IMG/VR virus record: IMGVR_UViG_2600255062_000003
Span: 1 to 64,000 of that record
Length of the DNA stretch: 64,000 bases
DNA from: a virus
Taxonomy: Duplodnaviria > Caudoviricetes
Strand: one strand, 5' to 3'
How positions within the stretch are numbered: the stretch's first letter is position 1; every line of letters starts with the position of its first letter. Made by a program: the position numbers and the translations under genes. Below, piece after piece: positions 6,435-64,000 of the stretch. Under the pieces are notes generated by a model. That model did no database searches, was not told the origin of the DNA, and worked only from the letters and a program-made list of their open reading frames with translations.

Positions 6435-6518
6435 TCTACTCCCCCCTCTCTATTGGTATTGAAAGAAGGTATTTAAATAGTTGTCTACAGTCTGTAAAAT
6501 ACTACTTTTATCATGAAA

Positions 6519-7067
6519 TTATTTGCTGCAACCATATGTATTTATTGCATTTTTAACAAAATCATTTAAGTGGTAATGCCACTTGCTTCTTTTTTTAAAT
6601 CCATTAAGTTCTATCCCTATCTCTTCACATATGCCTATAGGTATGCTGCTTTTATTCACTCTGTTCTTATATGTATGGCTAAGCTGATTTTGAGCAGTAA
6701 ATTGGTACTTAACAAAATCCTTGATATGTATAAAGAAAACTCTATTGTCTGGTTCTCTAAAATTTATAATAAAACCACTAATAACATTGTCGTACTCACT
6801 AGCCTCTTTTAATTTGTCAATCTGATGCTGTTTAATTACACTCTCATCAAAACTAACCGATTTTTGTTTTGTGGATTTAAGCTCTAAAGTAAAAAGATAT
6901 TTCTCAGAAAACATCATGCAGTCATAATCATTTTTCGTAACCCTAATTCTGTTTCTTAATTCCGCTGGAATAAAAGTATCTTTAATTCTGGTAAAAAATA
7001 TCTTCTGAGTTGATTCAGCAGACGCTTGAAAGTCACCCTCAAAAAGCTTTCCCTCATTCTTACTCAT
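6519..7067 (-). CDS. RecU-like Holliday junction resolvase
   Basis: GKLFEGDF...DC...LELKST...HQIDKL PD-(D/E)xK pattern. Confidence 0.7.
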   Translation of the reverse strand: MSKNEGKLFEGDFQASAESTQKIFFTRIKDTFIPAELRNRIRVTKNDYDCMMFSEKYLFTLELKSTKQKSVSFDESVIKQHQIDKLKEASEYDNVISGFIINFREPDNRVFFIHIKDFVKYQFTAQNQLSHTYKNRVNKSSIPIGICEEIGIELNGFKKRSKWHYHLNDFVKNAINTYGCSK

Positions 7068-7596
7068 AGGAAGCTCTCCATCATCTTCAAACGATCATCC
7101 AAATAATCTGTTTCTAATTTCACTAGTTCCTCATACTTCTCTTCCTTTATAAATCCATACTTATTGTACATCTCAAGTCTTTTTAATGTATGTGTCTTCA
7201 ACTCTTTAATCAATTCAATATTATGACCAACTAAATTCAAACTACCATTCCTCTCCTGCAATAATTATTTTTGCTCCATTCGCTTTCTTTAAACAGTCAT
7301 AGTCGTCGTGAACGTTCAGACCCTCGAATAAGATCAATATTTCCTCTCCAACTAAGATGTCTTCATTACACCCCGCACAAATTGAAAATCTGTTCACCTC
7401 CTTATCTTGTGCGTCAGGAAATCTATATTCATGATATGGAGTTTCAAATCTATCAAAGTTATTTGCCATTATTGTTCATCTAGAAGCTTGTTCAGGACGA
7501 TTGATACAATCTCTTTGTACTCTTTCTCGCTAAGCTTCCGATTCAAAATACTTTCAATCTTGTATTTGCTCAACTTGTCCATAAAGTTATTCTCCT

Positions 7597-10500
7597 TTAA
7601 CTTTTTCGCTCAGTAGTTACTTTAACTGTGCCATCTTCTCTAATTTCATCTATAAACATAGTGGTATGTTTAACTCTTGAGTCTTTATAGTTGTATGGTC
7701 TAAACTGTGAGCCTCTGCGATATCCAAACAGAATCAATTTGTTACCACGCGTAAACCATGATCTTTCAATAATTTCTTTAGTTCCATCTTGTTTCGGTTT
7801 TGATATTTGTTTGTTGTAATGTGCAAAAGCACCATCGTAATATTTCGCGGTAACTACTCCAGTAGTCGTAAGAATCGTTACAGTATTCTTATTTTTGTCT
7901 TTATCTAAAACAGTCCCAGTAATGAAGTCCAACTTAAATTTGGGTCTAGTTGAACCATTCCTAAATTTCATCATTTCTACCACCACTGGATCTTCAGGCA
8001 GCTCAAAGAAATTTACAATTCCGTATTTGGCTGTATCAATGTTTTTAAGTTCGTGTTCTGTGTAGTAAAAAGATAAAGAGTCCATTTCCCATTTACTCAA
8101 TGTACCTGAAGCTAAACTATTCCATTCGTTTTGATATAGTTTTGAATTAAAAAGAGACAGAGTACTATCTTCAGTTAGCCAACTCTTTATTCCTTCTATC
8201 TTTTTATCGTATTCTTTTTTGAATGTTCGTTCTGCTATGATTGGGAAATTATTGTGATAATCTTTTATAGCTTCTCCTGAAAAGTGCTCATAATAAAAAG
8301 GAGTGGAAATTTTATCGAGCAAGTAAAACTTCTCTTTACCTTCTTTACCATAGACATTTTTGATAATGTACTTTCTAAAGTTGAACAGTCTTTTATATTG
8401 GGACATATCTTCTGGAATCAGATTATTTTCAATAAGAGCATTAAAGTTCTGCATAGTAACTTTTTGTTTAGGTGTAAAAATCTTATGTATAAATTGCTTC
8501 ATAATTTCTAAACGATCACCAAAAGATTCAAAGCAACCAGCTTTAATCAACTGAATTACTTGGGACTTTTTGATGATTGAGGTATTAAACATCCTCTCGA
8601 TAAAATCATCAAAAGATTTATATGGTCTATGTTTAATAATGTTCTGAACAACATCATCACCAATGCCATTGATTCCTTTTAGTCCAAAAACAATTTGATT
8701 AAGCTCTGTATCGGGAAAAAATCCATAATCGGCTTTGCTTATATCTGGAAGACCTATTTTAACACCACGACTTTGCATGTTCCCAATTGCAGAAGCAATT
8801 TTTCCGTAGTTTGTGGATTGTGTTTTAGTATCTTCATTTTCATCGTGAATGGAAGCAGAGTTTACTGTTAAACATGCTGTTCTCCAATAAATAGGATCGT
8901 AAATATTATTCAAGTTAGCTTCCTGTAACGCGATAATTGAATAAGCCAAGGTATGTAACACAGAGAATGAATATCCTAACTGTCTAACTATTTGTTTATT
9001 CCAGACATAATCTAGGATCTCTTTTCTATTCTTTAACTCCAATCCTTTCTTATAAAATTTATTCTTTATGTCTTCGATTTCATTTGCTTTTTTCTTTGCA
9101 ATAATTTTCCTGAGCTTATTTGCTTCTTGGATTGTAAATCCTGCCACTTTTTTGTCCATTGAAAGAAGCATTATAGACTCTTGTGTGTCTGCTACTCCAT
9201 TCAATGCAAGTAAATGCTTCTTCATAGTCTCTATTTCTTCTTCATTTAAAAAATTCTCGTGCAATTCCTTGTACCATTCATTAATATCCTTTTTAAATCT
9301 GATAAAGCTATCAATTGGTGTTTCGCTGTTATGGTCACCCATAAGACGCATAAGTGAGTTTGCAGCAGCTAGTTCGATTAGATTAGATGGTTTAGTTCTT
9401 TTTACGGTTTGTATTCCTATTTCTGTGGAAAACTGAAAAAGATCAGTTATACTATCCGAACCAATTAGGTCATATATTTCTTGACTCTTTATGTCGATAA
9501 TATTGGGATGCAAATATTTGTTATAAGTTTTTCGAATTGATCCTTGCCACTCCATTAGATTTTCTTTAATTAGAAAATCCAATGCCACACGAATCTTATC
9601 CAAACCCTCGATTGTTAACAAGTCGAATTTCATATTTGATACGGCTTCACAATCTTCTAGGCTAAGTTGCGTTACATGAGTACCATTAGGAGCGGTCATC
9701 ATGGCATTAGTTTTATAATATTCTTCATTGAAAACTATTACACCACTAGCATGAATACTTCTTTTGTTTACTAGTCCCTCAATTTTCATTGCCACATTGA
9801 GCCAATTATCAAATTTATTTATTTCAGTAACAAACTCTTTAACTGGCTTACGTTCTTTTTCTTCATTTCCATTAACACAATCTGTTAACGTCCAACTGCT
9901 GCCTCTTTCGAAAGGAATTAGTCCAGACACATACATAGCCGTATCATTATCGATCCCTAGCCCTCTAGCTGCTGTTTGTACAGCAGATTTTGATGCTTCT
10001 GTACCAAATGTGCAAACCTGTAGAACTTGGTTTTCACCAAAGTATTTCTTTAGTTGTTTGAAGATCTGATTCCGTTTTGCTGCTTCAGTATCGATATCAA
10101 TATCTGGGAATTCTGGTCTCTCTGCTGTTAAGTGTCTCCAATGTGGCATTTCGATACCATACTCTAAAGGATTAACCTGAGTAATTCCCAAGAGGAAGCA
10201 AATTAAGTACCCAGCAGAAGAACCACGAGATGGGCCAACCAAACTATTCCCACACTCATCATCCCAAATAACATTTACAATTTCTCGAACTGTAATGTAG
10301 TAACTTGCTACTGATTGATTCATTTTCTCAGATATCTTCCATAGTTCGCCCAATTCAGTGTTAATTCTAGCGGCTACTTTATGCAATTTTTCTTTCGAGT
10401 AGGTGTTGTATGGAAGATACTCTCTAAATCCGTCTTCTATTAATTTTACTATGTATCTATCTTGGCTATTATTCGAGTGAGCCATTTTATCTATAAATTC

Positions 10501-11541: not shown

Positions 11542-11699
11542 ACCCCTTCCTATAAAATATTGATTTTAATTAAATCCTATATGAACACTTTGCATCTCTC
11601 ACCTCCTTTAATATTTATAAGGCTTCATAAAGAACAATCAATGGATTTCTGCTAAGTTGAATAGGTATGATTGTTCTTTATGGACAAATACAATTTAAT

Positions 11700-12674
11700 T
11701 TATGGCATTATGACAGACTCTCTTTTATTCATTTCAATATTTGAATTTGATATATCTCGTGGCAAAATATCCATTAAATTTTGCTTAGAGATTTTTACAC
11801 GTCTACTCATTATTCTGACAGCTTGGTGCCGAATTGCTTTTTCAATCACGTTACGAACATAGCGTGCATTACTAAAATTACTTCTTGAGTCTTTCTCAAT
11901 CTGAATTATTTCTCTTAGCTTTATCAGTGCATCAGAGGTAATGTTGTAGTCTTTTTCATATGCCATCTTTACTGCAATTAACATTAACTCGTCTGTTGTG
12001 TAATCCTGAAAATCTATTTGTATTGGAAACCGGGATGGAAGACCAGTATTTGTTCTAAGGAACATCCCCATCTCATCTGGATAGCCTGCAAGGATAATTA
12101 TTAAATCATCACTTCTATCCTCCATGACTTTTACAAGACAGTCTATTGCTTCCTTTCCAAAATCTTTATCACCTCCCCTAGCCAAACTGTAGGCTTCATC
12201 AATAAAAAGGATTCCTCCCATAGCTTTCTTAACAAGATCACGTGTTTTTTGTGCGGTGTGACCGATGTATTCTCCAACTAAGTCTGCTCGTTCCACCTCA
12301 ATCAGATGACCTTTACTAAGGATACCCATTCTGTTTAGCAATTTAGAAGCTATTCTTGCCACTGTCGTCTTCCCTGTACCGGGATTCCCTTTGAATATCA
12401 TATGGTATACCTGACTACTATTTTTCAAACCTTCTTCACTTCTAAGTTTTTGCACCTGTATCAATGCATAAATCTCATACACAAGATCTTTTACCTTTTC
12501 AAGTCCAATCATTTCATCTAGATCCTTAAATATGTCTGCTGCGGATTCATAATGATTACTGGTTAATGGGACTTCTTCGTTTTGCTCAGATATTGTTTCA
12601 TAAGCCTCTTGACTTTTAAAGACAACATTAATTCTTGATTCATTAACAGTAATCCTTCTGGAGTTTCCATCCAC
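11700..12674 (-). CDS. spoVK: Phage-encoded intact SpoVK-like AAA ATPase
   Basis: GNPGTGKTT, ERADLVGEYIGHTAQKT, LFIDEAYSL, FSNARYVRN; GAGGTG RBS favours GTG at 12674. Confidence 0.9.
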   Translation of the reverse strand: MDGNSRRITVNESRINVVFKSQEAYETISEQNEEVPLTSNHYESAADIFKDLDEMIGLEKVKDLVYEIYALIQVQKLRSEEGLKNSSQVYHMIFKGNPGTGKTTVARIASKLLNRMGILSKGHLIEVERADLVGEYIGHTAQKTRDLVKKAMGGILFIDEAYSLARGGDKDFGKEAIDCLVKVMEDRSDDLIIILAGYPDEMGMFLRTNTGLPSRFPIQIDFQDYTTDELMLIAVKMAYEKDYNITSDALIKLREIIQIEKDSRSNFSNARYVRNVIEKAIRHQAVRIMSRRVKISKQNLMDILPRDISNSNIEMNKRESVIMP

Positions 12675-12696
12675 AGTAATCACCTCTCGTTGTGAC

Positions 12697-12857: not shown

Positions 12858-13137
12858 TCAAGTCCCTATAAAATCATCTAAGCTTTTATCAAGATCTGAT
12901 TGCGATATAAAATCAACTTCTTCTAATTCTTCTTTATTCACAACGAGTTCATCATCAATTGCAACTTTGCTCCCTAAAATTTCAGGTTTTCTACCTTTGT
13001 GCCCAAATAAGAATTGTCTTAAAGCTTCTCTAACGATGTCGCTCTCGTCATAATATACAGGAAGTTTACTTAGCGCTTTTTTTGAGGTCATCGTCCTTTC
13101 CGTTTCTGAGTCTTGCGCTAACTAATTTCTTCCCCAT
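12858..13137 (-). pseudogene. ParR-like ribbon-helix-helix adaptor, frameshifted in an A7 run
   Basis: MGKKLVSARLRNGKDDDLKK joins ALSKLPVYYDESDIVREALRQFL if one A is removed at 13077-13083; start overlaps parM end. Confidence 0.6.
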
Positions 13138-14087
13138 GCTCTAACCCCAATTTTTTCATATCCTCTTATTTGTGCAAGCTGATCGAAAAGTATTTTATTC
13201 TTGAAATTAAGCATGTTAAAAACCTGATGTGCTGCACCTCCACCAATTAGATAATAATCAAAATCTATATTTAGTCCATCAATCTCATTTTGAATTTGGA
13301 TTGCTAATGATTTAAACGCTTTTGCTATTAACGGTTTTATATTTCGTCCTTCATATATACCGCTTATCACATACTTGTCTAGTTCATAAATAGCTGGAGC
13401 CTTACCAATAGTATTCATCAGATACTTACGCAATAGCTGATATGCCTTTTCGACTCCCAGCAATAAGCTTGTTGACTCTTTCATGATTTCTAGTTTATCT
13501 AATCCTAAAAGGTTTAAAGTGTAAAATCCTAAGTCAATTACCAATACCTTTTTATTTGCAATATGTACTTTTTGAATCTTTCCTTTATTGTCTAACAGAT
13601 AGTCCATTGCTATTCCATATCCCTGTGGAACAAGTTTATATTTATTTATATGAAGTTTAATTTCTGAATAATTCCCCCTACCTTTCTTAAGACTATAAGT
13701 ATCCTCTGTATTTATTCTATCCAGCATCTTTTCCATATCACTTTTTTGATTGAAATAGAATAATACAGGTAGTCCAGTTACCATATTAAATGGATTATTT
13801 TTATTTAGATATCCTAATCCAGTTTTCAGTAAAACGTCCGAAGTCATCGCTTCACTCTTATTATTTTTAAGTGTAAAATATTTAATCTCACTATGCCTTA
13901 AGGCAACATTTCCCACAAATAATTCATCATTATAGAAAAAATCATTTGGCTTGATGTTTTCTTCAAACATTGGTTGAACATCGCCAGAGATAGAAGGCTG
14001 AAGATACATTGTATTGCCTGTTTTCCCCTTGGTGTAGCTAAATCCGAGATCAATCACACTTAAATTTTTCACTACAGTTAAAGCCAT
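13122..14087 (-). CDS. ParM/StbA-family actin-like ATPase
   Basis: IDLGFSYTK, VTGLP, PQGYG, IDLGFYT and GGGA actin-fold motifs; GGAGG RBS before ATG 14087. Confidence 0.85.
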   Translation of the reverse strand: MALTVVKNLSVIDLGFSYTKGKTGNTMYLQPSISGDVQPMFEENIKPNDFFYNDELFVGNVALRHSEIKYFTLKNNKSEAMTSDVLLKTGLGYLNKNNPFNMVTGLPVLFYFNQKSDMEKMLDRINTEDTYSLKKGRGNYSEIKLHINKYKLVPQGYGIAMDYLLDNKGKIQKVHIANKKVLVIDLGFYTLNLLGLDKLEIMKESTSLLLGVEKAYQLLRKYLMNTIGKAPAIYELDKYVISGIYEGRNIKPLIAKAFKSLAIQIQNEIDGLNIDFDYYLIGGGAAHQVFNMLNFKNKILFDQLAQIRGYEKIGVRAWGRN

Positions 14088-14306
14088 GATATTACCTCCA
14101 AATACAATGAGTATCAAAGTATGACAGTATCTCAACAGTGTCGTACAATGTAATACATTCTATAAGATGATTATATCACGGCTTTATCATTTTGTATATA
14201 TATGATTATATTTATTTATATAATATTTTGATCCTATAAGAGTAGTATTGAGCAATGTATAAAATCAGGATTTTACGTAGATTATTGATTCATAAAACCC
14301 TTATAA

Positions 14307-16691
14307 CTATTGAGTTTTTTGACTCTCTCTCCTGTTTAGTTCAATCTCAATTCTTTCTGTGTTTTCGATTCTAAAAAACGATGGTGTATAATTGAATTCC
14401 TCCATCCATCTTAAGATTACTTCGTTCAATCGCTGCTCAAGAATCTCAGAGTGTCCTTGAACCACGTCATATAAATAACCATCTGCGGCCTCTCCTATTT
14501 CGTCATTAACTTGCTCACCAATATCTTCTAAAATCATATCCACATTAACTCCAACACTCGAAACAATGGTAGATATTTGACCAACATAAAATACAGTATT
14601 CTCATCTGGGTCATAATAATAACTCTCTCCATTCTTAATGGCTTCTTCTTTTGTATTAAAACAATTAAAAGTACCCCAAACTCCGTCTTCATATAAGTTA
14701 AACATCCATTGCCCCTCTTTAAAGTCCGATTTGTAGCCTCCTTGTATTTTGATTTTACGCCCCAACTTCATGTAGAGCAGTGTGTATCTCGGCAATTAGC
14801 GACTTAGTCTCTTCAACTCCCTCTTCTCCAATGTTAAAAATTAAATCTTCTTCCTCTGTAAGTCCTACCCATGCTTGTAAATCGTCTTGTGCTACTTCGA
14901 GAAGCTTTAGAATATTTTGCATTTGATCAACTATCCCCATAGACCTCATCTCCCTTGCTTGAAATTTATAAAAAGTGCAGTTATTACCCCAAGGATCATT
15001 GCCAATATAAAATACAATATTGATTCATATATGTTCATTTATATCTCCTGATCAAATTCATGTTTTACCGTAATTGTTTATATGTATTTGATAACTCAAT
15101 AAACCATTCTTTATCATTCATAGCAATAGCCATATCAATCAAACACATAATAGATTCCTTGTCTAGTTCAGGCACCTCTTGAATAACAGTAGCCACTAAA
15201 ACAATGTTGTTGTTATAACTATTCACATTTTCTTCAATTTGTTCGATCTCATTTATGTATGCAGCTACGTCTACTTTTCCACCAAGTTCTAATTCCAACA
15301 TTCCTTTAATCTCATTCAGTGTAAGTCTCCGTTTTAATATTTCTTCTTTGTACTTAAAAGAAAGAATCCTTCCACTAATATCCAACCTTCTTATAATAAA
15401 ATCGTAATTACTTGCCATTACATCGACATCGATTTCTATTATGGGTTCACTAGTGAAATAGCCATAGTGTTTTTTGAGAGACTTTTTTAAAATTTGAAAA
15501 ATATCATCTTGATTTAAAAATTTCATATGTATTATAGACCATCAAAAATGATCATCCTCCGATTGATAATATTCTGTACCGCTATTTATTTGCCATTGCC
15601 ATAACTTGCTTATGTATTTTGCATATTGTTCATCTGTTATTTGTTTTGAGTCTTTTTTGTTGTTCATGATCTCCATGTACTTATTTAGTTCTATGCTTAC
15701 TCACCCCTATTAGTTCTCCACTTACTTTAGTTAGCTTCAATCTCCGCTATGTCTGCCCACAATACGTGATCAACATAAATTATTAATTCTTCATTGATAT
15801 CTGTTTTTGGGAAATGATATTTAGAAGAACTACTCAACTGATGAGTTATTATCTCAAAAACATCCTTATCAAACGTTTTTACTCTAATTGAATTACCATT
15901 GATTAAATTAAAAGTTAATAAGAAGCCTTTCTTCGGCATAGGCATAGATTTGCTCTTCTCATACCAATCTTCGATCTCATACCAATCTTCGTTATGTTTC
16001 CTGTCTAACACTTTACCTACACCCTTTCTTGATCAAAGTCGCCTTTTATTGTGGTTCAAAATAACTTTCAACTTTTTTAGAATTGCCGCCTAGATACATT
16101 TTAATCTCATTTAATACTCTAATAGTATCTCCAAACGCTTCCTTCATGTGTGGAGAATATTCTATAGCAGAATCCGTTGCTGCTAATATACACAGTTTTT
16201 TATCTAATTCATCAAACAAGTCGCCCAATACACTACCTTCCATGTTTCTCTCTCCAATCTTCGTAAAATGCATCTTTTACTTACATAGTGCTTCAATTGA
16301 CTTTAATAGTTCTTGCTTATCAAGACCAACCACTCTGTCTCCCAACCTTATTTTCACTTCCGAAGAATCACTGTAAGATTCAAAATCAATTGTTTCTGTT
16401 GAATATGAGTTGTAACTGTCAGTTAGTGAATTGAGCGTTATTTTCATCTCTACGTCCTCCGTAAAAATACTCAGATTTGGCAAGTTCGACCCTATTGTCA
16501 GATAAATTTGGAAAAAGGTAATCCTTATTAAATACTGTTCTGTAGAATATCCAAAAAACTTTCATTTTTATATTTACGTTAAACTCAACAATAGCTCCAG
16601 CTCTTTCCCAATATGTTGTTTTATTCTTGTGGATGATTTTATATTTCTTGTTACCATAATCATAATAATGAACTTCTTTCTGAAGACTCAT
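14307..16691 (-). other. Cluster of short hypothetical phage genes
   Basis: Co-oriented ORFs ending at 14307, 14755, 15065, 15727, 16046, 16277, 16419, mostly with RBSs. Confidence 0.7.
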
Positions 16692-16729
16692 CTAAATACC
16701 TCTTCCCTTATAAAATATGAGTTTTACTC

Positions 16730-18558: not shown

Positions 18559-18639
18559 TTTAGCCCCTCCTAAATAATTTAATTTATTATAGCAGGTTAC
18601 TGACGATTAAATAAAACAAGTGTTTTATAATAATATGTA

Positions 18640-19383: not shown

Positions 19384-19989
19384 TCAACATTTCTCCTTTA
19401 TTTTTATTTTAGTAAAACAGGTATTTGATCATCTTCATTAGAATATTCTGTGCCATAGCGACCAAAAAGTTCTTTTCCATTTACCCTTAACTAACTCATA
19501 TCCATCTATGTAACATTTTCCATTAATTGTTGTGATGTTTTTACCCGACATTTTTGGATGAAAAGATACTACGTTACTTCCAGACACAACGCTTCTCTTT
19601 TCTGTATTCACAAAAATAGTCCCATTCATAAACACTCCCATTCTCTTGTCCTTTCTTTGTTTTTGATCGAACTAGCCTTCTATTACTAACTGTTACTCCA
19701 CATCTTCATTAAATTTTTATTGTTTGCTTATGGGCAACATCTTCAGTCAGACATGTAGCTGTAAAGTATGACAAATAACTAGCTTGACCGATATGTTCAA
19801 AAATTTTATTTATTTGTATTCCAACTTGTCTGTAGGCCAATTCATTAATAGTAAAGTTAGTATCAAGAGCATATTTCCTAAGTTTAGCCCCTGCCATTTC
19901 TATGGCTTCTTGCTCTGTCTTTGCGATTAGTAAGTAGCTGTTTAACCCGTAACTAGTATATTTATTATCCACTCTAAACAATTTCATTT

Positions 19990-24346: not shown

Positions 24347-24382
24347 ATGTATTGATTGCTCCCTTATGTCCCTGTTTTAGTT

Positions 24383-25351: not shown

Positions 25352-25371
25352 CTAGTTACTCTCCTGTTCGT

Positions 25372-46373: not shown

Positions 46374-46444
46374 TCAATCTCTCCTCTATGTATTATTTCG
46401 TCCTCTAACACATAATATCATATATTATTATATTTGTATATATA

Positions 46445-46714: not shown

Positions 46715-46727
46715 ATGTATTTCCTCC

Positions 46728-47806: not shown

Positions 47807-47852
47807 CTGTATCCTTCTTTCTATATTCTAATGAAAGGAAAATTTGATCGTA

Positions 47853-49219: not shown

Positions 49220-49912
49220 TCAAATCTCAATCATATCTGTATACATCAATCTCTGTTTATTTGGTAGCTCAAAATCATGGTGAAAATGCCCAAAATACCA
49301 TTGTTTATAATCTACTTTTTTCTCTATATTATAAAAATAAGGATGCATTTCATCCAAATCCATGTGAATGCCACAACGTTGCGTAATGTACTCTAATGCT
49401 GGGGTTGAACACGTGTGAGTCAGTATGTAATCAACTTTCCAATCATGCTTTTTCAAATTCTTCAATCCTTCTTTGTATTCCTCTTCTGATGGCATTTCAC
49501 GTTTCCACCACGACTTACCTTCCTTACGATACTCTTTGTCATGTGACGCAGCTCCACCAAACGTAAAGAACTTCTTACCTTCAATATCAAACACCTGTCC
49601 GCGCATCAAATGAATTACGCTATTGTTAATCTTATGTACTTTCCCACCATTCCATTGGCTCACTGGATACTCCTCAAGCAAATCAAAGTTCTCATGATTG
49701 CCATCAATAAAGAGTGTTGTAAATGGTTTCGTCTTGTTTAACCACTTCAGCCAATACTGATCCTCTTTATCGCCATTCCACAGTAATCCAAAGTCTCCAA
49801 CAATAATAACATAGTCTTTCTTGGTCATTTCTTTTTGTTGTGGGAAATTTCTAGTATTAAGACGCTTATTTACACTTATTGTTCCATGAATGTCTCCAGT
49901 CACATAGATCAC
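49220..49912 (-). CDS. Calcineurin-like metallophosphoesterase
   Basis: GDIHG, GDFG, GNHE, THT, GHFH. Confidence 0.88.
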   Translation of the reverse strand: MIYVTGDIHGTISVNKRLNTRNFPQQKEMTKKDYVIIVGDFGLLWNGDKEDQYWLKWLNKTKPFTTLFIDGNHENFDLLEEYPVSQWNGGKVHKINNSVIHLMRGQVFDIEGKKFFTFGGAASHDKEYRKEGKSWWKREMPSEEEYKEGLKNLKKHDWKVDYILTHTCSTPALEYITQRCGIHMDLDEMHPYFYNIEKKVDYKQWYFGHFHHDFELPNKQRLMYTDMIEI

Positions 49913-50892
49913 TTATTGCGTTCATCCTTTCTTGTAAAAGTCATATTTTATTTAGTCCTCAGTATACCATTGTCCTTCCAAGATCAACGCACCATTCAAT
50001 GGTTGAAAATGTTCCCTCCAAGCCGTAACTATATCATAACTATAGACAGTTTCTCGGTAGATGCATTTAGCCTTTTTGTCAAGCAAATCCCATCTCTGTA
50101 GCGCCTCCATAAATTCGCAAGCCCGATATCCCTCAAACATCTCAATTCTCCTTTCTACTTAAAACTCACATTTTATTCTGTTTCGAAACTAACTAATTCG
50201 GTCGGTACCAATTTAATTAATCCTGTCGTTGTTTCACATAATGAATACCCATCTTCATAATTGTAGATAACCTCTACTCTAAGATATCTTTCAAAATCCT
50301 CATATTTTTTAGATAAAAACCCCGTCTTACCAATGTACTTGTTATCATCTAAATATTTACCAATTTTTAAATATTGTTCTCTATATTCCATGAATGAATC
50401 TAACAGTTCAGATGCCTTATCTGTACCAATTTCTTTTTCTAATTTAAAATATAGGTCATTTTCAAGATCACGATAATCCATGTGAATTTTAAACATGTCC
50501 TTGTTCATTGTAAGTTCTCTCTCCTCGTAAAAGTGTTATTTTACTCACTCTTCTCAGATATTAACTCTTTCAATCTGTTAATTTCATATCCACACGAAGT
50601 ATATTCTCGTACACACTTATATTTTTCTTCCAATTTCTCCTGTTTGGTAAATAAGCGCTTCATCTGTCGTTTGTACTCAATTATTTCTGGGGAATCCCAC
50701 TCCTTGGGTTCACATATCAATTCATATGAATTTTTCAACCAGTATTCACCACCAATAAAATTATCTTTTTACTCTAGCTATCATACCTTCCTCGATGCTT
50801 ATCATAACAATATTATACAACATTTTCCTATGTATTTCCCGATAACTTATACATATAATATTATTATATTTGTTTATATAAGTCAAGCTGAA

Positions 50893-51307: not shown

Positions 51308-51853
51308 TATAGTGTACAACTAACTAAATAACTATTCAATAGCATCGTATCTAAACATATTCCCATCTGCCTCAATAAGAACTCTTTGTCCAACATATTC
51401 GCCATCTATGTATAATTCAAATTCATTTCCCTTGTGTTCAACCAAGAGAGCATTTGAAGGGATATTTCCGTAGTTTCTCGTAAACTCCTCTCCAGTGGGC
51501 AACTCAAACCGAACAACAATTAGATTATTCATGTGATTTGTTTTAAGGTAAATTCGAAATACATTGTCTGTCTTGGGTGGAAACTGATACTGAACATTTG
51601 CTTTCTGTTTTGCCATTATGTATTCTCCTATCTTGGTAAAACGATGCTTTTATTTGCTTTTATCTTTTATGTACTCTTCTACTTCAATCATAAATAAATC
51701 AATTTTCACATTCAGCCCCACTCTCAGTTCTTACCCCCCAATTTGAAACCACAATATTCAAGGCACAAATCTAGAATGTAAGATGAAGAACTGTATTAAC
51801 ACCAAAGTAAATGGTAATGATGCTAATGAAAAAAACGAAAGCGAGGTGGAAAT

Positions 51854-52033
51854 ATGATAAAGGTAGAAAAAATGAGTGATAAAGAAATAAAGATTACATT
51901 GCCAGAAAATATGCATGTAGGAAAAGAACAACCTGATGTTACTGAGTTATATCATGCTTTAACTAATCAACTTGTGCCAGTGCCAAATCGTGCCGACGAT
52001 CATGATGTTTGCATCATTCAAGTAGGCCATTAG
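51854..52033 (+). CDS. Putative RiPP precursor peptide, 59 aa (not in ORF track)
   Basis: GAGGTGG RBS; MIKVEKMSDKEIKITLPENMHVGKEQPDVTELYHALTNQLVPVPNRADDHDVCIIQVGH; directly upstream of SPASM enzyme. Confidence 0.75.
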   Translation: MIKVEKMSDKEIKITLPENMHVGKEQPDVTELYHALTNQLVPVPNRADDHDVCIIQVGH

Positions 52034-52044
52034 TCAATATTATC

Positions 52045-52096
52045 CCTTAATACCGACGTACCTTAATATTTGGTGTACGCTAGGTATTAAGGTTTT
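52045..52096 (+). terminator. Stem-loop between peptide and maturase genes
   Basis: CCTTAATACC/GGTATTAAGG outer stem, CGTAC/GTACG inner stem, then TTTT. Confidence 0.7.
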
Positions 52097-52112
52097 AAAA
52101 AGGAGCACTAAT

Positions 52113-53450
52113 ATGAAACTTAAACCATCTAATTATAACTTACTTATTAATGATAAAGATGAAGATTATTATCTGAATACCTATACAGGTTCGACGCTTA
52201 GATTAACTAAAAGAGCCTCAAAAGATTTATTATATATAATTAATAAAATCGAGAAATATGATGACATTGGATTGGAGTTCCAGTTAATTGTTGAACTATT
52301 ATTGGAGCATGGATTTGTTTTACCTTACGAATCTGATGAGTTAACTCTTGTTTTTAATACTTTTAATGAACGCCGCAAAAATAAATCTGCACTATCTCTC
52401 CTAATCACACCTACTTTGAAATGTAATATGAAATGTTTCTACTGTTATCAAGATCGTAATAATCAAAGTAACTTAAACAAACATGATATTTCTTCAATTG
52501 TTAGTTTTGCCGCTGAAAAACTAGAACAATCAAATCGACTTCGTGTTACTTGGTTCGGTGGAGAACCTCTATTCGATAAGGGCTTTTTGTTTGAATGTTC
52601 AAATGCTTTGATAGAATTAGCGAAAAACCGCTATATCGATTACAGTGCGACAATAGTCTCCAATGCTTACTTATTAGATACTGAAACATTACTTAATTTA
52701 GTCAAACATAAAGTTAAAAATATTCAAGTTACTCTAGATGGATCGCAAGTTTTTCATGATAAGGTTAGACGACATTTAAATGTTGCAACAAATAAAAGAG
52801 AAGCATCATTTGAGAAAATAATAAACAATATTAATCTGGCTTCCAATTATTTAGATATTACTGTAAGAGTTAATGTATCGATTATAAACATGACTAGTAT
52901 AGAAAATTTAATTAATGAACTTGCAAAAGCTAACCTACAAAGTAAAATCAAAAATATATATTTTCATCCTATTTACAATTATAACACTATAAATTCCAAT
53001 TCTAACTACAAACCTACAGAAGGTACACATCTTACAATTCAGCAGTTTGCTAAGTTAGAAGTTGAGTGGTTGCGCCAAGCCTATAATAAAGGGTTCAAAA
53101 TTAACTTTCCGCTCAAATCGGGCTGCTCTGCTCTTCAAGAAAACAGTTTTATAATTGAAAGCAACGGCGAAGTGAAAAAATGCAATAATGATATTGGAAA
53201 AAGTGGTACGGCTTTTACGACAATTTATACAACTGAATTAATTTCAAAATTCAATATTGATAATTGGAAAAATTATCACCCAGAAACAATAACTGAATGC
53301 AGAAACTGTATGTTTCTTCCTGTTTGCTTTTCCAACTGTCCACATAGAAATATGAATTCTGCTGAAAGAAAGCCAGATAAGTGTCCTTCCTTCAAATACA
53401 ACTGGCGAGAAGTACTTCCTTTTGTCTTAAATCAAATGTCAAAAGATTGA
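52113..53450 (+). CDS. Radical SAM/SPASM peptide maturase
   Basis: CNMKCFYC, WFGGEPL, QVTLDG; SPASM cysteines GC...KC...CRNC.FLPVC...CP...C; ~90-aa N-terminal extension. Confidence 0.9.
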   Translation: MKLKPSNYNLLINDKDEDYYLNTYTGSTLRLTKRASKDLLYIINKIEKYDDIGLEFQLIVELLLEHGFVLPYESDELTLVFNTFNERRKNKSALSLLITPTLKCNMKCFYCYQDRNNQSNLNKHDISSIVSFAAEKLEQSNRLRVTWFGGEPLFDKGFLFECSNALIELAKNRYIDYSATIVSNAYLLDTETLLNLVKHKVKNIQVTLDGSQVFHDKVRRHLNVATNKREASFEKIINNINLASNYLDITVRVNVSIINMTSIENLINELAKANLQSKIKNIYFHPIYNYNTINSNSNYKPTEGTHLTIQQFAKLEVEWLRQAYNKGFKINFPLKSGCSALQENSFIIESNGEVKKCNNDIGKSGTAFTTIYTTELISKFNIDNWKNYHPETITECRNCMFLPVCFSNCPHRNMNSAERKPDKCPSFKYNWREVLPFVLNQMSKD

Positions 53451-53502
53451 AATTATTAAAGATCAAATGTTCATTTTATCATTTAATAAGCAACACATAG
53501 TA

Positions 53503-54692: not shown

Positions 54693-55262
54693 TTAATACA
54701 CCCCCTAAAATATGTATTTCATCTTAAATCTCTAGTGTGAAACCATCACACTCATTGATCTCGCACTCATTTTCGAACTTGTCTTGAATATTCTCATTTG
54801 GATTACTACACGTTTCGAAGCAAGCGTATTCCACTTGCTGCATCGGATCTCCACATTCATGCCAAAAATGCTCACACTTTAAACAGATACTGTCTGTATT
54901 TACCTTCATTTTTCACCTCTCTATGATTAGATAAGTTTAATCTCTACTTTTCGAATTGCTTTTGGTACAATACACTCTCCGAAATATGCCCATCCACAAT
55001 CCTGACTAACTAAATCATGAAATTGTGTTTCTGCATAATCCTCAGATAAAAATTCAGCGTTATAAAAGTCTCTGCGAGAATAAACTCTGATGTCTGTATC
55101 TGATTCTTGTTCAAATTTCGCAAACCTTCCATTTGCTAATTCAATGACACATTTTTCAATCTTCATTAAGACCCTCCCCATCATCCCTTCGTTTTATAAA
55201 ACCTATTAAAAACACTCTCTTAATGTTCACGTAAAACACGCATTTTATAATAAAATTAAACT

Positions 55263-55294: not shown

Positions 55295-56833
55295 CTATAT
55301 ATTTTGAACTAAAATTTCGTTAACCAATTCTATAAATTTATCTCCATCGATAATCTCACTATTAAAATCTGAACCTAATACATTCAAGTGTGATAATGTC
55401 TTTTCTAGGCCATCAAACTCAACTGCAAATGGCTCTTTAATGTTACTAGGTCTTTGACGGAATGAACCAATTTTATTTTTCATAAAAAACCATTTACCAT
55501 AAATATTGTCCGCTTCCTCAACCAGCAATAAATTAAAACCTTGCCCATCGTAAATATCAAAATAACCCCACGCAATTATCAGTTGATCTCTGAGTTTAGG
55601 ACGTACAACAACTTGATATTTACTTTCCCAAAAACTATCTTCTCTAATTTTATAAAAATCTTTATCAAACAATACTCTTAGTCTTATGTTGACTTTTTTA
55701 AGTGATGGTAATTTGAGTTCCAAATTAATATAGTCTCTTTTCAGATCGTTAAACGAATCCAAGATCATCTTTGAGCCAGTGTATCTTGTATTGAACTCAT
55801 TCACATATTCCTTTAGTGGTTCGTAAATACATTCTTTGAATTGATAGTTAATTCTTTTTACATGATCCTGTTTTTCGTTTTCTTCTTTTTGTTTCAGAAG
55901 TTGCTGGGTCTTATGCGACTCATCTTTTACAACTTTAATGTTAACAAGATTGTCAATTAAACTTGTTACGGAAGTTGCAGGTGTCTCATCTAAACCAATC
56001 TCTCTTTCAATCTCTTCCCAGTTTTTATAGCGCGCGCCAACATTCTTCTCAATCATCTTATTGACAACTTGTACAATACTGTTGGTAATAGTTGGATTAA
56101 TCTGTTTTATTGGTGTTGGATTTTGAAATGTATGAGCCTCTTGCCACATAGTCATATCAGCCTCATTTTTAACCTCATAAGGATGTCTAAGTGTAGCTAG
56201 TTCATAAAATAGGATTCCCATTGAATAGATGTCATTTTGAATTGTGTTTTTTTCGCTTCTCCATCTTTCTGGCGCCATATACTTAATGTGACCGATGCCT
56301 TTAAAAGTAAGTTGTCTAGTCTCTTCTGTTGCAACTTTAGCAAGACCAAAATCAGCGATTTTTAGAGTTCCCTTATGAATCAATATATTATCTGCCTTTA
56401 TATCCCTATGTACTAAGAGATCGTTTATATGTTTCATTCCCTGAATTAGCTGACTGTAAAACTCTTTCAACAGTTCGTTTGAAAAGAAAACACCTTCTTC
56501 TTTTTGCTTATTCAAATAACTCAATAATGTCCCTTGGTCTGCGTATTCCATAATTAAATATGGTGGTAAATTCGGATATTTATCCTTGTGTATATAGAAA
56601 TATTTTACTGCATTGGGATGAGAAACTTTTGTTGCCATTTGGCATTCATTTATAAATGTGACATAAGCTTCTTGTGTAGGAAATGTTGTTGGTAGTGTCT
56701 TTAAAGCAAAGACACTTTTATCCGACTTCCTTTGAATCTTAAAAACAAACCCAAAATTCCCATTTCCAATCATTTCAATTACTTCATACTCCTCTTCGGA
56801 TTCATCAAATACAGTAACACCCTGAGCAATCAT
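55295..56833 (-). CDS. Hanks-type Ser/Thr kinase with unknown C-terminal domain
   Basis: IGNGNFG, ALK, HRDIKADN, DFG, APE; own TG-TATAAT at 56864-56871. Confidence 0.92.
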   Translation of the reverse strand: MIAQGVTVFDESEEEYEVIEMIGNGNFGFVFKIQRKSDKSVFALKTLPTTFPTQEAYVTFINECQMATKVSHPNAVKYFYIHKDKYPNLPPYLIMEYADQGTLLSYLNKQKEEGVFFSNELLKEFYSQLIQGMKHINDLLVHRDIKADNILIHKGTLKIADFGLAKVATEETRQLTFKGIGHIKYMAPERWRSEKNTIQNDIYSMGILFYELATLRHPYEVKNEADMTMWQEAHTFQNPTPIKQINPTITNSIVQVVNKMIEKNVGARYKNWEEIEREIGLDETPATSVTSLIDNLVNIKVVKDESHKTQQLLKQKEENEKQDHVKRINYQFKECIYEPLKEYVNEFNTRYTGSKMILDSFNDLKRDYINLELKLPSLKKVNIRLRVLFDKDFYKIREDSFWESKYQVVVRPKLRDQLIIAWGYFDIYDGQGFNLLLVEEADNIYGKWFFMKNKIGSFRQRPSNIKEPFAVEFDGLEKTLSHLNVLGSDFNSEIIDGDKFIELVNEILVQNI

Positions 56834-57402
56834 GGAAAGTCCTCCCTAAATTTTTGTAACTCAATTATACAATAACCTGTTGTTATATGTCGTCCCCTCC
56901 CTTCTCGTAATGGATATAAAAGAACTCATTTATCTGATTATTTATAGCTTTTTGTCCAAGATACCTCTTTGTGATTGCTGTTTTGAGATTGAAATTCCCA
57001 TCCATTACTAGTCATATATACTGCATGTTGTAGGTATTCCTCATAGCTACTATATTCGTAGTTTACAATTTCAAATCTAATTTTCGGCATAATAGCATTA
57101 TCCTCCTCTGTTATTTCAGTATCTGATTGTTTATCTTCATTTTGTCCATGTTCTTCTGTAATCATAGAATCAGGGATCAAATAGCCTCTGCAATGTGGAC
57201 ATCTATCATAATCCTCTGACCATATTTCACCACATCCCTCATAATGGGAAAAGTGAAATAAATGTCTTTTGGGCACTCCTATGCATCGGTACATTATGTA
57301 TTTCCCTCCTAAAAATAAATGGCGTTACAACAACTTCACTAAAGTCATTATACCACCATTTATTAACTATGTATATTATTATTTTTGTTTATATAATTTG
57401 AT

Positions 57403-57915: not shown

Positions 57916-59852
57916 TTACAACATCCTTTTTATGTATTTATTTTTATTTGTATAAAATCTATGTTTTACTCACTTATCTTTTACTTCTATAATTAGGATT
58001 ACACCTTGAATTCTTTGTTTGTTAATTTCTCATACTTGACTATTTTATCTGCAATTTTTTCGTTCATTTGATCAATCTCGTGCTGAAGCTTCTCTTTCTC
58101 TTCTTCTATTTTTTGGTCAAACGCCTCTGTGCGATACAACTCACCATCACACATAACCCAGTCATCTCTCAGTTCCCAACCATACAAACTGCAATGTCTG
58201 TAACCAAATTGTTTCTTGTAGAATTCTAGTTGTTCTTCAATTGGTTTAGAGTTAATATCTTTAGCTCTGATAATATCCATAAATATATTCTCCTATTCTT
58301 CGTAATCACATTCCAAGTCATTCATCATCATAATTATGTCAGAAATATATGCCTTTCCTTTATCTTCGTCGCTTAATTCTACATTTTTGATATGTATATT
58401 TTTTAAATCATTCCACATCATTTTATAGTTAATGATACCTCTTGCCATTCATATTTGCCTCCTTTTCCTATCAAATTTACATTTTATCTCGTCTTAATGC
58501 TATCCAGAATAGAATTAGACCAATCATTGCAAGTACATAGCCTATGGGAAAGAATAGAATCGTTACGATCTTTTCTCCTCTACTAAGACCATCAAAGATT
58601 GACCTAAACAGCAACACATCTCTGCAACTATCAAACATGTCCTGCTCAGTAAATATCAAACACTACTCCTCCCATTCCAAAGCAATACACCCATAATAAT
58701 TACTTGTACTTAAGGCGCAACCATCTGGTACACTTGGCAACAACTGCTTTATTATTTCTTGATTATCGCCTTTTCTCATTGTTTCATCCCTCACTTGGAA
58801 GTGAGCCTTCTTTTTAGCAGGCTTTTTATTAGTTAACAACGAAAGATATCCAACTCTTTCACATGTCAGAGAATAATAGCTGCTTCTGTTATATAGTCTT
58901 ATACCATCGAATAGATTGCCTTCGTATGTTCCAAGTTGTTTTATGCTTCGACCTTCACAATCTCCTTCAGTTGAGAATTTCCAAATACCATTAACATCAA
59001 AATGCTTAGATTCCATCGCTTTTAATAAAGCTGCTTTTTCTTCTACCTCTCTACGCAGCCTATCCATATCTTCGTATATAGTCATTACAGTCCTCCTTGC
59101 GGTAAAAGTCCTCTTTTATTGGAGCTTTAATGTTTCAAAAAAATCTTTGTTTGCTTTATTGAATTTATCGAGTAATTCATGCCATTTTTCATCAAAATTA
59201 TCTGTAGAATAAATTGCCGTTTCTACTTCTTTTAAATCTTTTACTATCTGCTGAACCTTTAAATTATTACTTTTTATTGATAGATATTTTTTCAGTCCTA
59301 GTTTTGAAACTTTATTCATTTCTTTAATTACTTTCGTATAATGGTTTTTCACCTTGATATATGCAGCTTCTTTTTTTTCTTTGTTCATCCTAATATCTTC
59401 TCCTTTCATTTAAAATTTCTATTTGATCAGATTCAAATAAATAGAACAAGCTAGAATAAAAGCTACAATATCGTCGATAGTTCTAGGCGTGATTGTGCCA
59501 TAAAACATTTTTTCTGCAATCGTCCATAGAAGGCCTATCACGCAGTAAATTACCAATACATTAACAAAATCAATGATAAAAAGAAGTACACCAACAAAGA
59601 AGTCAACCAAAAATATATCCACCCCTTTCGTTTCTAATTTGTTCATGATTTTATTTCAACTAAAATTGCGATTTTATGTTTAATCCTCTTGCCAACTATA
59701 TTTCTTATCCACTGCTTTATGATCACATACTCTGCAAGTTATATGAGTTAATCCATCATAATCTCCAATGCACTCGATCATATCTTGATCTTCATTTCCA
59801 CATTTTGTACAAGTAATTTTAAATCCTTTGAATTTAGCCATCTTTGCACTTC

Positions 59853-60563: not shown

Positions 60564-60604
60564 TCACTACCTCTTTTCTATGTAAAATTCTTATTTGATA
60601 ATCT

Positions 60605-62245: not shown

Positions 62246-62677
62246 ATTTTACCCTCCTCTCTCGATCAAATGCTGATTTTATCGAACTCTATCTACCAGT
62301 ATACTTTTACCCATTAGGAATCTCACTGGCTTATCATAGATAATCATAGTGCTCAAATCCTTAAATATTCTCGTTCTACAAGGCAAATTAGAATCTATTT
62401 GATCATGAAATTTTGTTTTATAGACAGTATTGTTTCCAGTGTCATAAATATGAACTTTAAAATTTAAGGCATCGGTATAACCATTTAAAACTCCATCTTC
62501 TGAACTTGTATCTTCATGCGGATATATATGTATCACACATCTATTCATTATTGCTTTCGGCGACTCAAAAATTTCTTCATATGAACTAAATGTTTCTTTA
62601 ATGTATTCTTCTGAATTTTTTGTAATATCAACTTCCAACTTCATTCAATTCTCCTCTCTTTAAAAGATCGATTTTAC

Positions 62678-62869
62678 TTACTCATCGCTTTTTAATTGGT
62701 CTAATATTGTTCTATAATCAGAGACTTTTTCTTTGTAAACTTCAATTCGACTTTGAACCAACTCCAGCTTATGCTCCAAATCTTCCTTTTCTCTCTCTAA
62801 ATCAAGTATAAAATCATCGTAATAGTCCAATTGTTGCTCAACAAAATGTTTTGCGCTTTGAACACTCAG
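62678..62869 (-). CDS. 63-aa coiled-coil protein, CTG start
   Basis: AAGGAG RBS then CTG; fills gap between two repeats. Confidence 0.55.
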   Translation of the reverse strand: MSVQSAKHFVEQQLDYYDDFILDLEREKEDLEHKLELVQSRIEVYKEKVSDYRTILDQLKSDE

Positions 62870-63153
62870 ATAAATCTCTCCTTTCCTGATGAAATATCAA
62901 TTTGATTTGGTTTTTTTGTTCTTGATTTTCTTTAATAACCCTTCACCGCTAACCGATAAATTCCCACCCCAAATGATGAAATAAACCAAAAAAACTAATG
63001 TAAAAGAAAATATATGTACCAAAAGGAATATTGACATCCAAGCAGCCATGCCCAACACAGTAATTGTCAGTGATGCTTCTGGTAAAATTTTAGATGCTAT
63101 CAAAAGAATAAAAAGCCAAATATAACTTAAATAATGTTTTTTCAAATGCTTTT

Positions 63154-63432
63154 TCATATAACACTGCCTCCATTGATATTCCAATTTAACCGTTTGGGAT
63201 TCCCTACTCCACCATAAACATATAGTGGCTCTTTGTATTCGAAATATTTATTTACTTGTGTTTCACTTAGAAAGTAACAATCCCTTTCGATAAAACCAAT
63301 TGAATTAGATCCATATGTAGTAATAAATTTCTCAGTGCTGTATGTATCAATATTGTAAAAGTGACCTTTTAAAAACTGATGAGCTATACCTAATCTGTCT
63401 TCTAAAACTGCACTAGTTAAAGCTTGATAAAT
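63154..63432 (-). CDS. 92-aa hypothetical protein, ATT start
   Basis: GGAGGG RBS then ATT; its TGA overlaps the next ATG (ATGA). Confidence 0.55.
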   Translation of the reverse strand: MYQALTSAVLEDRLGIAHQFLKGHFYNIDTYSTEKFITTYGSNSIGFIERDCYFLSETQVNKYFEYKEPLYVYGGVGNPKRLNWNINGGSVI

Positions 63433-64000
63433 TGCTATCCCTCCGATAATTCAAAATAAAATCTTTATTTTACTGGGTAGTCTTCCTTATAAATTTTTTC
63501 ATACATACGTCTTACGTCCACTTGAAAGTAAATTTTTTCTGGCTCAAAAGGATCTCCAACTTCAAAAGTCCAATCCCCGATCAAACCTTTCTTAATTTCA
63601 ACTTCTTCAATTAAACTCTCTTTATAGTTTGACTTAAGCACAAACTGTTCATAGATATCCAAACCTTCACTATTGTCATATTGCCAATGCAGTAAAGTCA
63701 CCAGAAGTTCCGAGTTAGCAATTCCTGTATTATGAATTAACTGGATAATCTTTTGATCTGTAAACTTTTTAAAACGATTGTCATTGTTGAAATAATACTC
63801 AAAAATATGAATTACATTTCCTTTATCATCTGTAACTACTTTTGCATATCCATCAATAGGCATAGCCATAAATAGCGCATCCTCTCAATCAAAATTATAA
63901 ATCTAATCTTCATAAAATCCTTTATTGATTTTCTGTATATTTATTTGCTCTATTGGTGGTAACATTGATATAACATCCAACAACATCTCATACTTATGTA

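Follow-up and report, generated by a model that had tools for sequence, protein, structure and literature searches.

How phages exchange modules of genes is an old question, in which random illegitimate joins followed by selection have been set against linker sequences at gene borders. In the heterospecific lox and FRT systems of Cre and Flp, sites with the same centre recombine and sites with different centres do not, and cassette exchange keeps the order and orientation of the genes. This report concerns a short palindrome, TAAAA-N6-TTTTA, that recurs in the early region of a prophage related to Bacillus phage SPbeta. The window analyzed here is the first 64 kb of the 171-kb virus record IMGVR_UViG_2600255062_000003. 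At each position the six-base centre of the palindrome is kept among relatives while the adjoining genes are replaced, and the copies therefore most likely act as position-specific joints for gene swapping. Like the heterospecific lox and FRT sites, the phage sites have identical inverted arms and a short asymmetric centre, and the comparative data imply exchange between sites with the same centre. The lox and FRT sets are, however, engineered groups of two to five sites with 13-bp arms and 8-bp centres, whereas the phages carry a natural set of about 50-60 addresses per genome, with arms of 5-6 bp, centres of 6 bp, and candidate recombinases.

In Acinetobacter plasmids, dif modules are associated with pdif (XerC/XerD) sites with 11-bp arms, use the host Xer proteins, and move between replicons and positions (PMC6449649). 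Compared by geometry, both systems have many short sites, each made of an arm, a 6-bp centre and an arm, that flank accessory modules in varied contexts; the phage sites differ in having arms of 5-6 bp, position-specific centres, and cassettes that stay at their address. The PeSL elements of T4-type phages, each a sigma-70 promoter with a terminator hairpin, recombine by homology and give mini-circles (PMC2839356). PeSL and the palindrome are both short repeated intergenic elements between non-essential early genes, with insertions, deletions and replacements between related phages located there, but the motif of the SPbeta family is neither promoter-like nor terminator-like and each copy has its own centre. 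The arrangement also resembles the attC/attI sites and IntI of integrons, in that promoterless genes are each separated by a palindrome resembling a recombination site and a tyrosine recombinase is suspected. Unlike integrons, it has no attC structure (an imperfect hairpin of 57-141 bp with extrahelical bases), and the recombinase genes are not at the head of the array.

Within the SPbeta family itself, SPBRE is the SPbeta operator of the MrpR/YopR repressor, and the genome-wide profile of MrpR had ten peaks, all ascribed to SPBRE promoters (PMC10516654). SPBRE is likewise a dispersed conserved element and is bound by a protein with a recombinase fold, but it has another sequence and lies at about ten promoters, the only places where MrpR peaks occurred (PMC10516654). 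When SPBRE was derived from the regions upstream of the published target genes in the SPbeta record, the common core was AATATGTATA, inside a longer ATACAAA...TATGTAT-like element. This core is unrelated to TAAAA-N6-TTTTA, and identity of the motif with SPBRE was rejected. A literature search found no paper describing the TAAAA-N6-TTTTA motif.

The window is host-like from position 1 to about 4400, with a G+C content of 43-46%, and a large serine recombinase gene follows at 4452-6236 on the minus strand. Beyond the host flank and this gene, the G+C content is 31-36% and nearly all genes are on the minus strand. The DNA polymerase (1314 residues) is 55% identical to YorL of SPbeta, which identifies the prophage as a distant SPbeta-like phage. 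A megablast search of the phage collection with a 12-kb portion of the window yielded no match and hence no close relative, and a scan of IMG/VR for one exact 16-mer was set aside, since this short, AT-rich word matched mostly unrelated contigs among the matches listed. Relatives were reached through proteins: with the RecJ-like protein (35609-37183) as the anchor, 16 related loci were collected from IMG/VR, and five whole relatives were taken for site-by-site comparison. Nucleotide-level alignment to any single relative covers only 20-40% of the window.

The initial annotation, which had read the palindromes as an integron-like array of shuffling cassettes, took them to be more frequent than chance allows, and this was borne out: the window contained 34 exact copies, compared with 0.87 expected from shuffles (the largest shuffle had 3). 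All 32 exact starts given in that annotation were present in the motif scan, as were all of its 15 one-mismatch starts, and exact copies at 24306 (within an open reading frame, ORF) and 63356 had been overlooked. When one mismatch was allowed there were 62 matches in the window compared with 19.6 expected, so roughly one third to half of the one-mismatch copies are real; 12 of them had a centre common to relatives. On the 171-kb contig there were 54 copies with the N6 spacing and 0-5 at each of the other spacings from N0 to N14. Forty-eight of the 54 were within the first 100 kb (the early region), and the late region was sparse. The logo was symmetric, R-TAAAA-(not A)-N4-(not T)-TTTTA-Y, in agreement with the extended RTAAAA...TTTTAY arms and the fixed 6-bp spacer first described. 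The 54 centres on the contig were all different and none was palindromic, which is expected by chance alone and is not used as evidence on its own.

Each of the five whole relatives contained 50-61 exact copies, compared with 1-4 for a reversed-pattern control, and the same six-base centres were found in the same order in the window and the relatives. For 33 of the 34 exact sites in the window, the same centre was present in at least one of the five relatives, and 125 of the 170 site-by-relative pairs matched in their centre, where about 3% would be expected by chance. The common centres were almost entirely collinear (65/67, 61/65, 53/53, 54/57, and 67/67 in the individual relatives).

The sequences on either side of these matching centres were often unrelated. 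Among the 125 centre matches in the window, both 120-bp flanks were unrelated in 59, one flank was unrelated in 53, and neither in 13; in the contig from 6 to 100 kb, 179 of 240 pairs matched, with both flanks unrelated in 86, one in 72, and neither in 21. When printed side by side, the 16-mers were identical and one or both flanks were unrelated from the first or second base outside, and on the unrelated side the per-position identity was at background from the second base outside the motif. Breakpoints of homology were located at the motif, as cassette exchange of the kind first proposed would have them: 29% of the ends of blast-aligned segments were no more than 3 bp from a site, compared with 2.3% for random positions (eight genomes, 21 kb). 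At 34 of 106 common centres, a left-flank type was paired with several right-flank types and vice versa. The strict four-gamete test identified 0 of the 106 centres, the genomes being too few for it.

Constraint on the centre was measured at 113 junctions where the alignment runs through the site on both sides, with 40 bp per flank. Mismatches were found at 11.5% of flank positions, 1.8% of the six centre positions (all six of which were constrained), and 1.4% of the ten arm positions. In the 70 most diverged junctions the values were 15.9% for the flanks and 1.4% for both the centre and the arms. This constraint, together with the position-specific centres, speaks against the tolerance of non-matching centres, as in Tn916, that had been suggested for these sites. 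In addition, a sister clade that seemed to be poor in the motif has the form T[AG]AAA-N6-TTT[TCG]A, in which arm position 2 is relaxed, and its centres are the same as those of the window. Since this clade changes arm position 2 and keeps the centres, the centre is at least as stable as that arm position. Constraint on the centre is hard to reconcile with a protein or an RNA structure that reads only the arms. From these genome comparisons, the sites are very probably address-specific exchange points.

The sites of the window are given below; they are unstranded, n/5 is the number of relatives with the same centre, and a flank is 120 bp.

6495-6510: exact site, centre TACTAC (plus strand); 3/5 relatives
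11553-11568: exact site, centre TATTGA; 3/5 relatives, one flank unrelated in 2
14260-14275: exact site, centre TCAGGA; 4/5 relatives, both flanks unrelated in 2
15052-15067: one-mismatch site (TCAAA arm), TAA stop of ORF 15065-15526; 1/5 relatives
16033-16048: one-mismatch candidate, TAA stop of ORF 16046-16273; centre in 0/5 relatives
16264-16279: exact site, centre TGCATC, stop of ORF 16277-16483; 3/5 relatives, all with one flank unrelated
16711-16726: exact site, centre TATGAG; 4/5 relatives
18612-18627: exact site, centre CAAGTG; 4/5 relatives
19413-19428: one-mismatch site (TTTGA arm); 3/5 relatives
20827-20842: exact site, centre TTAGAT; 3/5 relatives, both flanks unrelated in all
21421-21436: exact site, centre GACGGC; 3/5 relatives
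24306-24321: exact site within ORF 23564-24346; 4/5 relatives
30095-30110: exact site, centre GAACTG (CAGTTC on the minus strand); 4/5 relatives, by alignment
31367-31382: one-mismatch candidate; centre in 0/5 relatives
32040-32055: one-mismatch site (TCAAA arm); 4/5 relatives, both flanks unrelated in all
33090-33105: exact site, centre TGTGCA; 3/5 relatives, both flanks unrelated
33451-33466: exact site, centre TTTGAC; 4/5 relatives, both flanks unrelated in all
34529-34544: exact site, centre CCACTA; 3/5 relatives, centre also in Geobacillus virus E3
34820-34835: one-mismatch candidate; centre in 0/5 relatives
35350-35365: exact site 3' of the RecJ-like gene, centre TCACCG; 5/5 relatives, centre also in E3
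37922-37937: exact site, centre TAGTAG, stop of ORF 37935-38120; 5/5 relatives
38143-38158: exact site, centre TCTTGT; 5/5 relatives
38343-38358: exact site, centre TGAATC; 3/5 relatives
39018-39033: exact site, centre GTATAT, stop of ORF 39031-39282; 5/5 relatives
39982-39997: exact site, centre TTCAAA, the clearest island; 5/5 relatives, both flanks unrelated in all
41047-41062: exact site, centre CCTACA, the sole exact site with its centre in 0/5 relatives
45182-45197: exact site, centre TTGAAC, stop of ORF 45195-46373; 5/5 relatives
47542-47557: exact site, centre GAAAGA, stop of ORF 47555-47806; 4/5 relatives
48708-48723: one-mismatch site, stop of ORF 48721-48948; 4/5 relatives
48962-48977: one-mismatch site (TGAAA arm), stop of ORF 48975-49223; 3/5 relatives
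49935-49950: exact site, centre GTCATA; 4/5 relatives
50160-50175: exact site, centre CTCACA, stop of ORF 50173-50508; 1/5 relatives
50528-50543: exact site, centre GTGTTA, stop of ORF 50541-50738; 3/5 relatives, both flanks unrelated
50756-50771: exact site, centre TTATCT; 3/5 relatives
51637-51652: exact site, centre CGATGC, border of the radical-SAM cassette; 5/5 relatives, cassette-side flank unrelated in 4
53463-53478: one-mismatch site, other border of the radical-SAM cassette; 2/5 relatives, both flanks unrelated
54706-54721: one-mismatch site (TTTCA arm); 4/5 relatives
55232-55247: exact site, centre CACGCA, border of the protein-kinase cassette; 5/5 relatives, both flanks unrelated in 4
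56917-56932: one-mismatch site, other border of the kinase cassette; 3/5 relatives
57953-57968: exact site, centre TCTATG; 4/5 relatives, one flank unrelated in all
58471-58486: one-mismatch site (TCAAA arm); 3/5 relatives
59103-59118: exact site, centre GTCCTC, stop of ORF 59116-59409; 4/5 relatives
59411-59426: one-mismatch site (TTTGA arm); 1/5 relatives
59661-59676: exact site, centre TTGCGA; 4/5 relatives
60583-60598: one-mismatch site (TTTGA arm); 5/5 relatives
62266-62281: one-mismatch site, stop of ORF 62279-62644; 2/5 relatives
62661-62676: exact site, centre GATCGA; 5/5 relatives
63356-63371: exact site, centre GTGACC; 1/5 relatives
63457-63472: exact site, centre TCTTTA; 4/5 relatives

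Comparison with the relatives gave 127 homologous segments, of which 54 were between the same two centres, 52 had one centre in common, and 21 had none. The segments with neither centre in common that were inspected looked as if they differed by a single base in a centre, or by an intermediate site present in one genome and absent from the other, the order being collinear apart from that. No clear case of a cassette relocated to another address was seen among the 127 segments, the group with neither centre in common having been inspected in part. The view that the sites delimit exchangeable gene cassettes was upheld, in that segments between shared centres are replaced in relatives. Judged from these alignments, cassettes are replaced at fixed addresses and their order is not shuffled. 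One phage-specific cassette, in the slot 51637-53478, contains a radical-SAM gene on the plus strand (52113-53450, PF04055) with a small upstream ORF, and the relatives have other DNA between the same two centres. Another, between the sites at 55232 and 56917, encodes a eukaryotic-type Ser/Thr protein kinase of 512 residues (55295-56833, minus strand; Pkinase, E 1e-47). A homolog of the kinase is found in one relative (G004) one slot further along the same order of centres.

The sites are almost all intergenic, as had been noted at the outset: although coding sequence makes up 88% of the region, no more than 10 of 48 sites were inside an ORF, with crude ORF calling. The start codon of the next gene is usually 7-30 nt from the site. 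According to the ORF table, 13 ORFs terminate on the motif's own TAA (those at 15065, 16046, 16277, 37935, 39031, 45195, 47555, 48721, 48975, 50173, 50541, 59116, and 62279). Stops supplied by the motif are thus confirmed, though not the earlier count of at least 14. The segments that had been described as free of the motif contained no exact copy, neither in the host flank (1-4400), nor within the nrd block (24322-30094), nor within the helicase-primase genes (41064-43709). Matches to sigma-70-type promoters and terminator-like matches were at or below the level of the shuffles and none was on a site. An identity as intrinsic terminators was rejected because the stems are all A-T, with no G+C-rich stem.

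Other features of the prophage were noted in passing. A perfect TTGACA-17-TATAAT promoter (41005-40977, minus strand), just 3' of the primase-helicase block, adjoins the site at 41047. Also in the early region, an actin-like protein (ALP_N, MreB-like_C; 13122-14135, minus strand) adjoins an AAA ATPase with AAA_lid_6 (11700-12683, minus strand), a pair that may serve in segregation or positioning. Two independent studies of the same cultured species yielded RNA-seq assemblies that contain the prophage region 30001-50000 with at least 99% identity, so a laboratory strain with this very phage probably exists. These two runs consist of assembled contigs, in which neither RNA ends nor strand are visible and no joints were seen, and two raw-read runs under the same species label lacked the phage.

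Site-specific recombination is the most economical explanation of the exchange, because it accounts for the invariant arms, the fixed 6-bp spacing, the conservation of all six centre positions, the sharp junctions, and the gene order. A phage-encoded dimer, most likely of a tyrosine recombinase, would bind the invariant arms, and strands would be exchanged across the 6-bp centre, with a requirement that the centres of the two partners match, as for lox, FRT, and dif. YomM-like and YopP-like proteins are the candidate enzymes. Because every centre in one genome is different, a genome's own sites would not recombine with each other, and there would be no deletions or inversions. Two related phages present in one cell, for instance a prophage and a newly arrived phage, could swap the segment bounded by two addresses that they have in common; the genes in it would be replaced, whereas the gene order, the upstream stop (often the arm's TAA), and the downstream ribosome-binding site would be kept. 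The geometry pointed out in the initial annotation, with inverted arms on either side of a 6-bp centre, agrees with the core site of a tyrosine recombinase (R-TAAAA-N6-TTTTA-Y, with only N6 enriched). A requirement for matching centres is suggested indirectly by the exchanged flanks, which always join at identical centres in the genome comparison. It is quite possible, at slightly less than an even chance, that a tyrosine recombinase carries out the exchange by conservative site-specific recombination. The reading as a whole, in which each palindrome is a fixed recombination joint of the SPbeta-like phages, has an address of its own, and works by the proposed mechanism, is evenly balanced.

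The recombinase was expected to be encoded outside of the window, and three tyrosine-recombinase-like genes are indeed found there on the same contig: the PF00589 (Phage_integrase) hits were at approximately 72, 110, and 135 kb. The YomM-like gene (contig 134684-135685) encodes a protein that is 58% identical to that of SPbeta, 58% to that of a Staphylococcus phage, and 53% to that of a Mammaliicoccus phage, and is about as conserved as the DNA polymerase (55%, 46%, and 45%, respectively). When it was aligned to XerA and XerD, the first Arg, both His, and the Tyr were in place. The gene is bracketed by two of the few late-region sites (contig 134269-135715; centres GAGCTA and CTATCC), one of them 15 nt after its stop, and in the relative G004 a recombinase with 28% identity is encoded between sites with the same two centres. 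YomM-family recombinases are also found in large siphoviruses beyond the SPbeta group: E3 (61%), Tsamsa-like Bacillus anthracis phages (approximately 30%), Lactococcus phiL47-like phages (approximately 34%), and Enterococcus VPE25 (26%).

In the YopP-like gene (contig approximately 109.3-110.4 kb), what appears to be the full catalytic set of Arg, Lys, His-x-x-Arg, His, and Tyr was read by eye. The remaining hit, a YopR/MrpR-like gene (324 aa; contig approximately 72.2-73.2 kb), belongs to a family described as an inactive repressor with a recombinase fold (PMC10516654). It is preceded by a 315-aa gene (both within contig approximately 72.2-74.1 kb) that may correspond to the ParB-like YopQ. 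The genes yopP, yopQ, and yopR are neighbours in SPbeta, whereas here the YopP-like gene is approximately 35 kb from the YopR/MrpR-like gene.

SPbeta contains 34 exact copies of the motif, which is by far its most over-represented gapped palindrome. Twenty-two of the 34 sites share their centre with phi3Ts, with both flanks unrelated in 5 of the 22 and one flank in 7, and sites mark the start or the end of blocks that the two phages have in identical form. The centre of the window site at 16264, TGCATC, is also that of the SPbeta site at 86074, but sharing of addresses between this phage and SPbeta is not claimed, since 2 common centres compared with 0.45 expected are too few. In Geobacillus virus E3 (KP144388), the sites at 5683 and 74026 have the centres CGGTGA and TAGTGG, which are those of the window sites at 35350 and 34529 (a match of the centre only). 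Counts of the motif and of a control in further phages were as follows.

Geobacillus virus E3: motif 30, control 7; enriched, YomM-family homolog
Bacillus phage Tsamsa: motif 23, control 3; enriched, YomM-family homolog
Mammaliicoccus phi6255: motif 39, control 6; enriched, YomM-family homolog
Staphylococcus SPbeta-like phage: motif 20, control 10; enriched, YomM-family homolog
Geobacillus GR1: motif 13, control 1; enriched, YomM-family homolog
Enterococcus VRE9_3: motif 11, control 6; not enriched, no tyrosine recombinase
Enterococcus EF1: motif 11, control 7; not enriched, no tyrosine recombinase
Lactococcus phiL47: motif 7, control 3; not enriched, YomM homolog
Enterococcus VPE25: motif 7, control 4; not enriched, YomM homolog
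MT835469 (unclassified): motif 7, control 5; not enriched, YomM homolog

A YomM-family homolog was present in every motif-rich lineage tested. In these lineages the motif appears to imply a YomM-family gene, and not the reverse, which is a lead rather than proof.

Several points weigh against recombination by a tyrosine recombinase at these sites. The arms of tyrosine-recombinase sites are usually 9-13 bp, and the arm conserved across the phage sites, at only 5-6 bp, is short in comparison. Binding, cleavage, and strand exchange are deduced from sequence comparison, the compared genomes are not phylogenetically independent, and an identical island of 16-18 bp could serve relaxed homologous recombination. 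In all YomM orthologs seen, including YomM of SPbeta and phi3T, the second catalytic Arg is replaced by Lys (HxxK), which makes their activity uncertain. The phages phiL47, VPE25, and MT835469 have YomM homologs (26-34% identity) and no enrichment of the motif, so the motif cannot be predicted from the presence of a YomM-family gene, and YomM may have another role, such as resolving genome dimers. The YopP-like protein is only 23-28% identical to its counterparts in SPbeta and in the phages of Staphylococcus and Mammaliicoccus, whereas the arms of the motif do not vary across those hosts. Laboratory hybrids of phi3Ts and SPbeta (MT366946-8, PP526179) crossed over in identical blocks of 1.4, 4.9, and 18 kb, and none needed a site; because these crossovers are within long identical blocks, they cannot be placed on or off a site. 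The authors who described the hybrids ascribed the crossovers to homologous recombination and mentioned no motif (bioRxiv 10.1101/2020.05.06.055103).

The main rival, which is unlikely, is that the palindrome is mainly a docking site of a dimeric regulatory or architectural protein at the borders of early genes, and that the breakpoints arise through relaxed homologous recombination on the 16-18 bp island, the only sequence that otherwise unrelated genes have in common there, with a Sak4-like annealing protein or the host RecA as candidates for that system. Symmetric arms with half-sites 11 bp apart are what a helix-turn-helix dimer would bind, the early region is rich in sites and the late region has few, the laboratory hybrids arose within homologous blocks, and a Sak4-like protein is annotated in the phage family. 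This rival accounts for the arms and for the junctions. However, a protein that reads only the arms leaves unexplained why the centre differs at 1.8% of positions when the flanks differ at 11.5%, and why the sister clade altered the arms and kept the centres. There is also no known regulator for the motif, and the peaks of MrpR were all ascribed to SPBRE promoters, which have a different sequence (PMC10516654).

A site-specific nuclease or nickase that cuts the palindrome, with repair from a co-resident relative, would also produce hotspots, and many nuclease sites have the form of a palindrome with a fixed spacer. Although the clustering of breakpoints at the sites fits this explanation, it is improbable: repair of a break needs flanking homology and would spread the ends of the tracts, whereas similarity here stops 1-2 bp from the motif, often on both sides of it, and a cut within the centre gives no position-specific conservation of the centre.

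The integron-like array of the initial annotation, in which cassettes would leave as circles and enter any site whatever its centre, is very improbable. The sites do bracket single genes or small modules, some in the opposite orientation (51637/53463), and tyrosine-recombinase genes are present on the contig, but the centres are address-specific, collinear, and conserved, most segments lie between the same centres, no clear case of a moved cassette was seen, the assembled RNA-seq contigs showed no joints (although rare circles could be missed in them), and there is no integrase, attI, or Pc promoter platform by the array, nor any attC-like hairpin of 57-141 bp in place of the 16-bp perfect palindromes. 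Equally far from likely is that the motif works at the RNA level, as a hairpin between cistrons that affects processing, stability, or translation. Its placement after a stop codon and before the ribosome-binding site of the following gene, in long operons of co-directional genes, would suit this reading, but the predicted hairpins are weak and all A-U (-1 to -7.5 kcal/mol; z-scores +0.4 to -2.2), the stem does not covary but stays the same, and the centre, which forms the loop, is conserved position by position as no hairpin requires. The sites are also neither terminator-like nor matches to sigma-70-type promoters, and an RNA role leaves the breakpoints unexplained.

With regard to the question of how phage modules are exchanged, the whole family, including the tractable SPbeta and phi3T of Bacillus subtilis 168, offers a sharply defined linker with the centre as the position label, and the tractability of these two phages makes the question directly testable. 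It is tentatively suggested, with somewhat more doubt than confidence, that the SPbeta-like phages of Bacillus, Geobacillus, Staphylococcus, and Mammaliicoccus have a dedicated natural system of addressable cassette exchange, in which one phage recombinase acts on 50-60 sites per genome that have the same arms and each a 6-bp address of its own. If so, it would be a site-specific route to phage mosaicism, distinct from illegitimate or homologous recombination, it would furnish dozens of natural recombination sites that are incompatible with one another, and it would provide a possible function for the conserved orphan recombinase YomM. It would explain how accessory genes turn over rapidly in these prophages although the genome order is kept, and related phages would trade accessory genes, possibly including anti-defence genes, at defined slots while retaining synteny and their own DNA.

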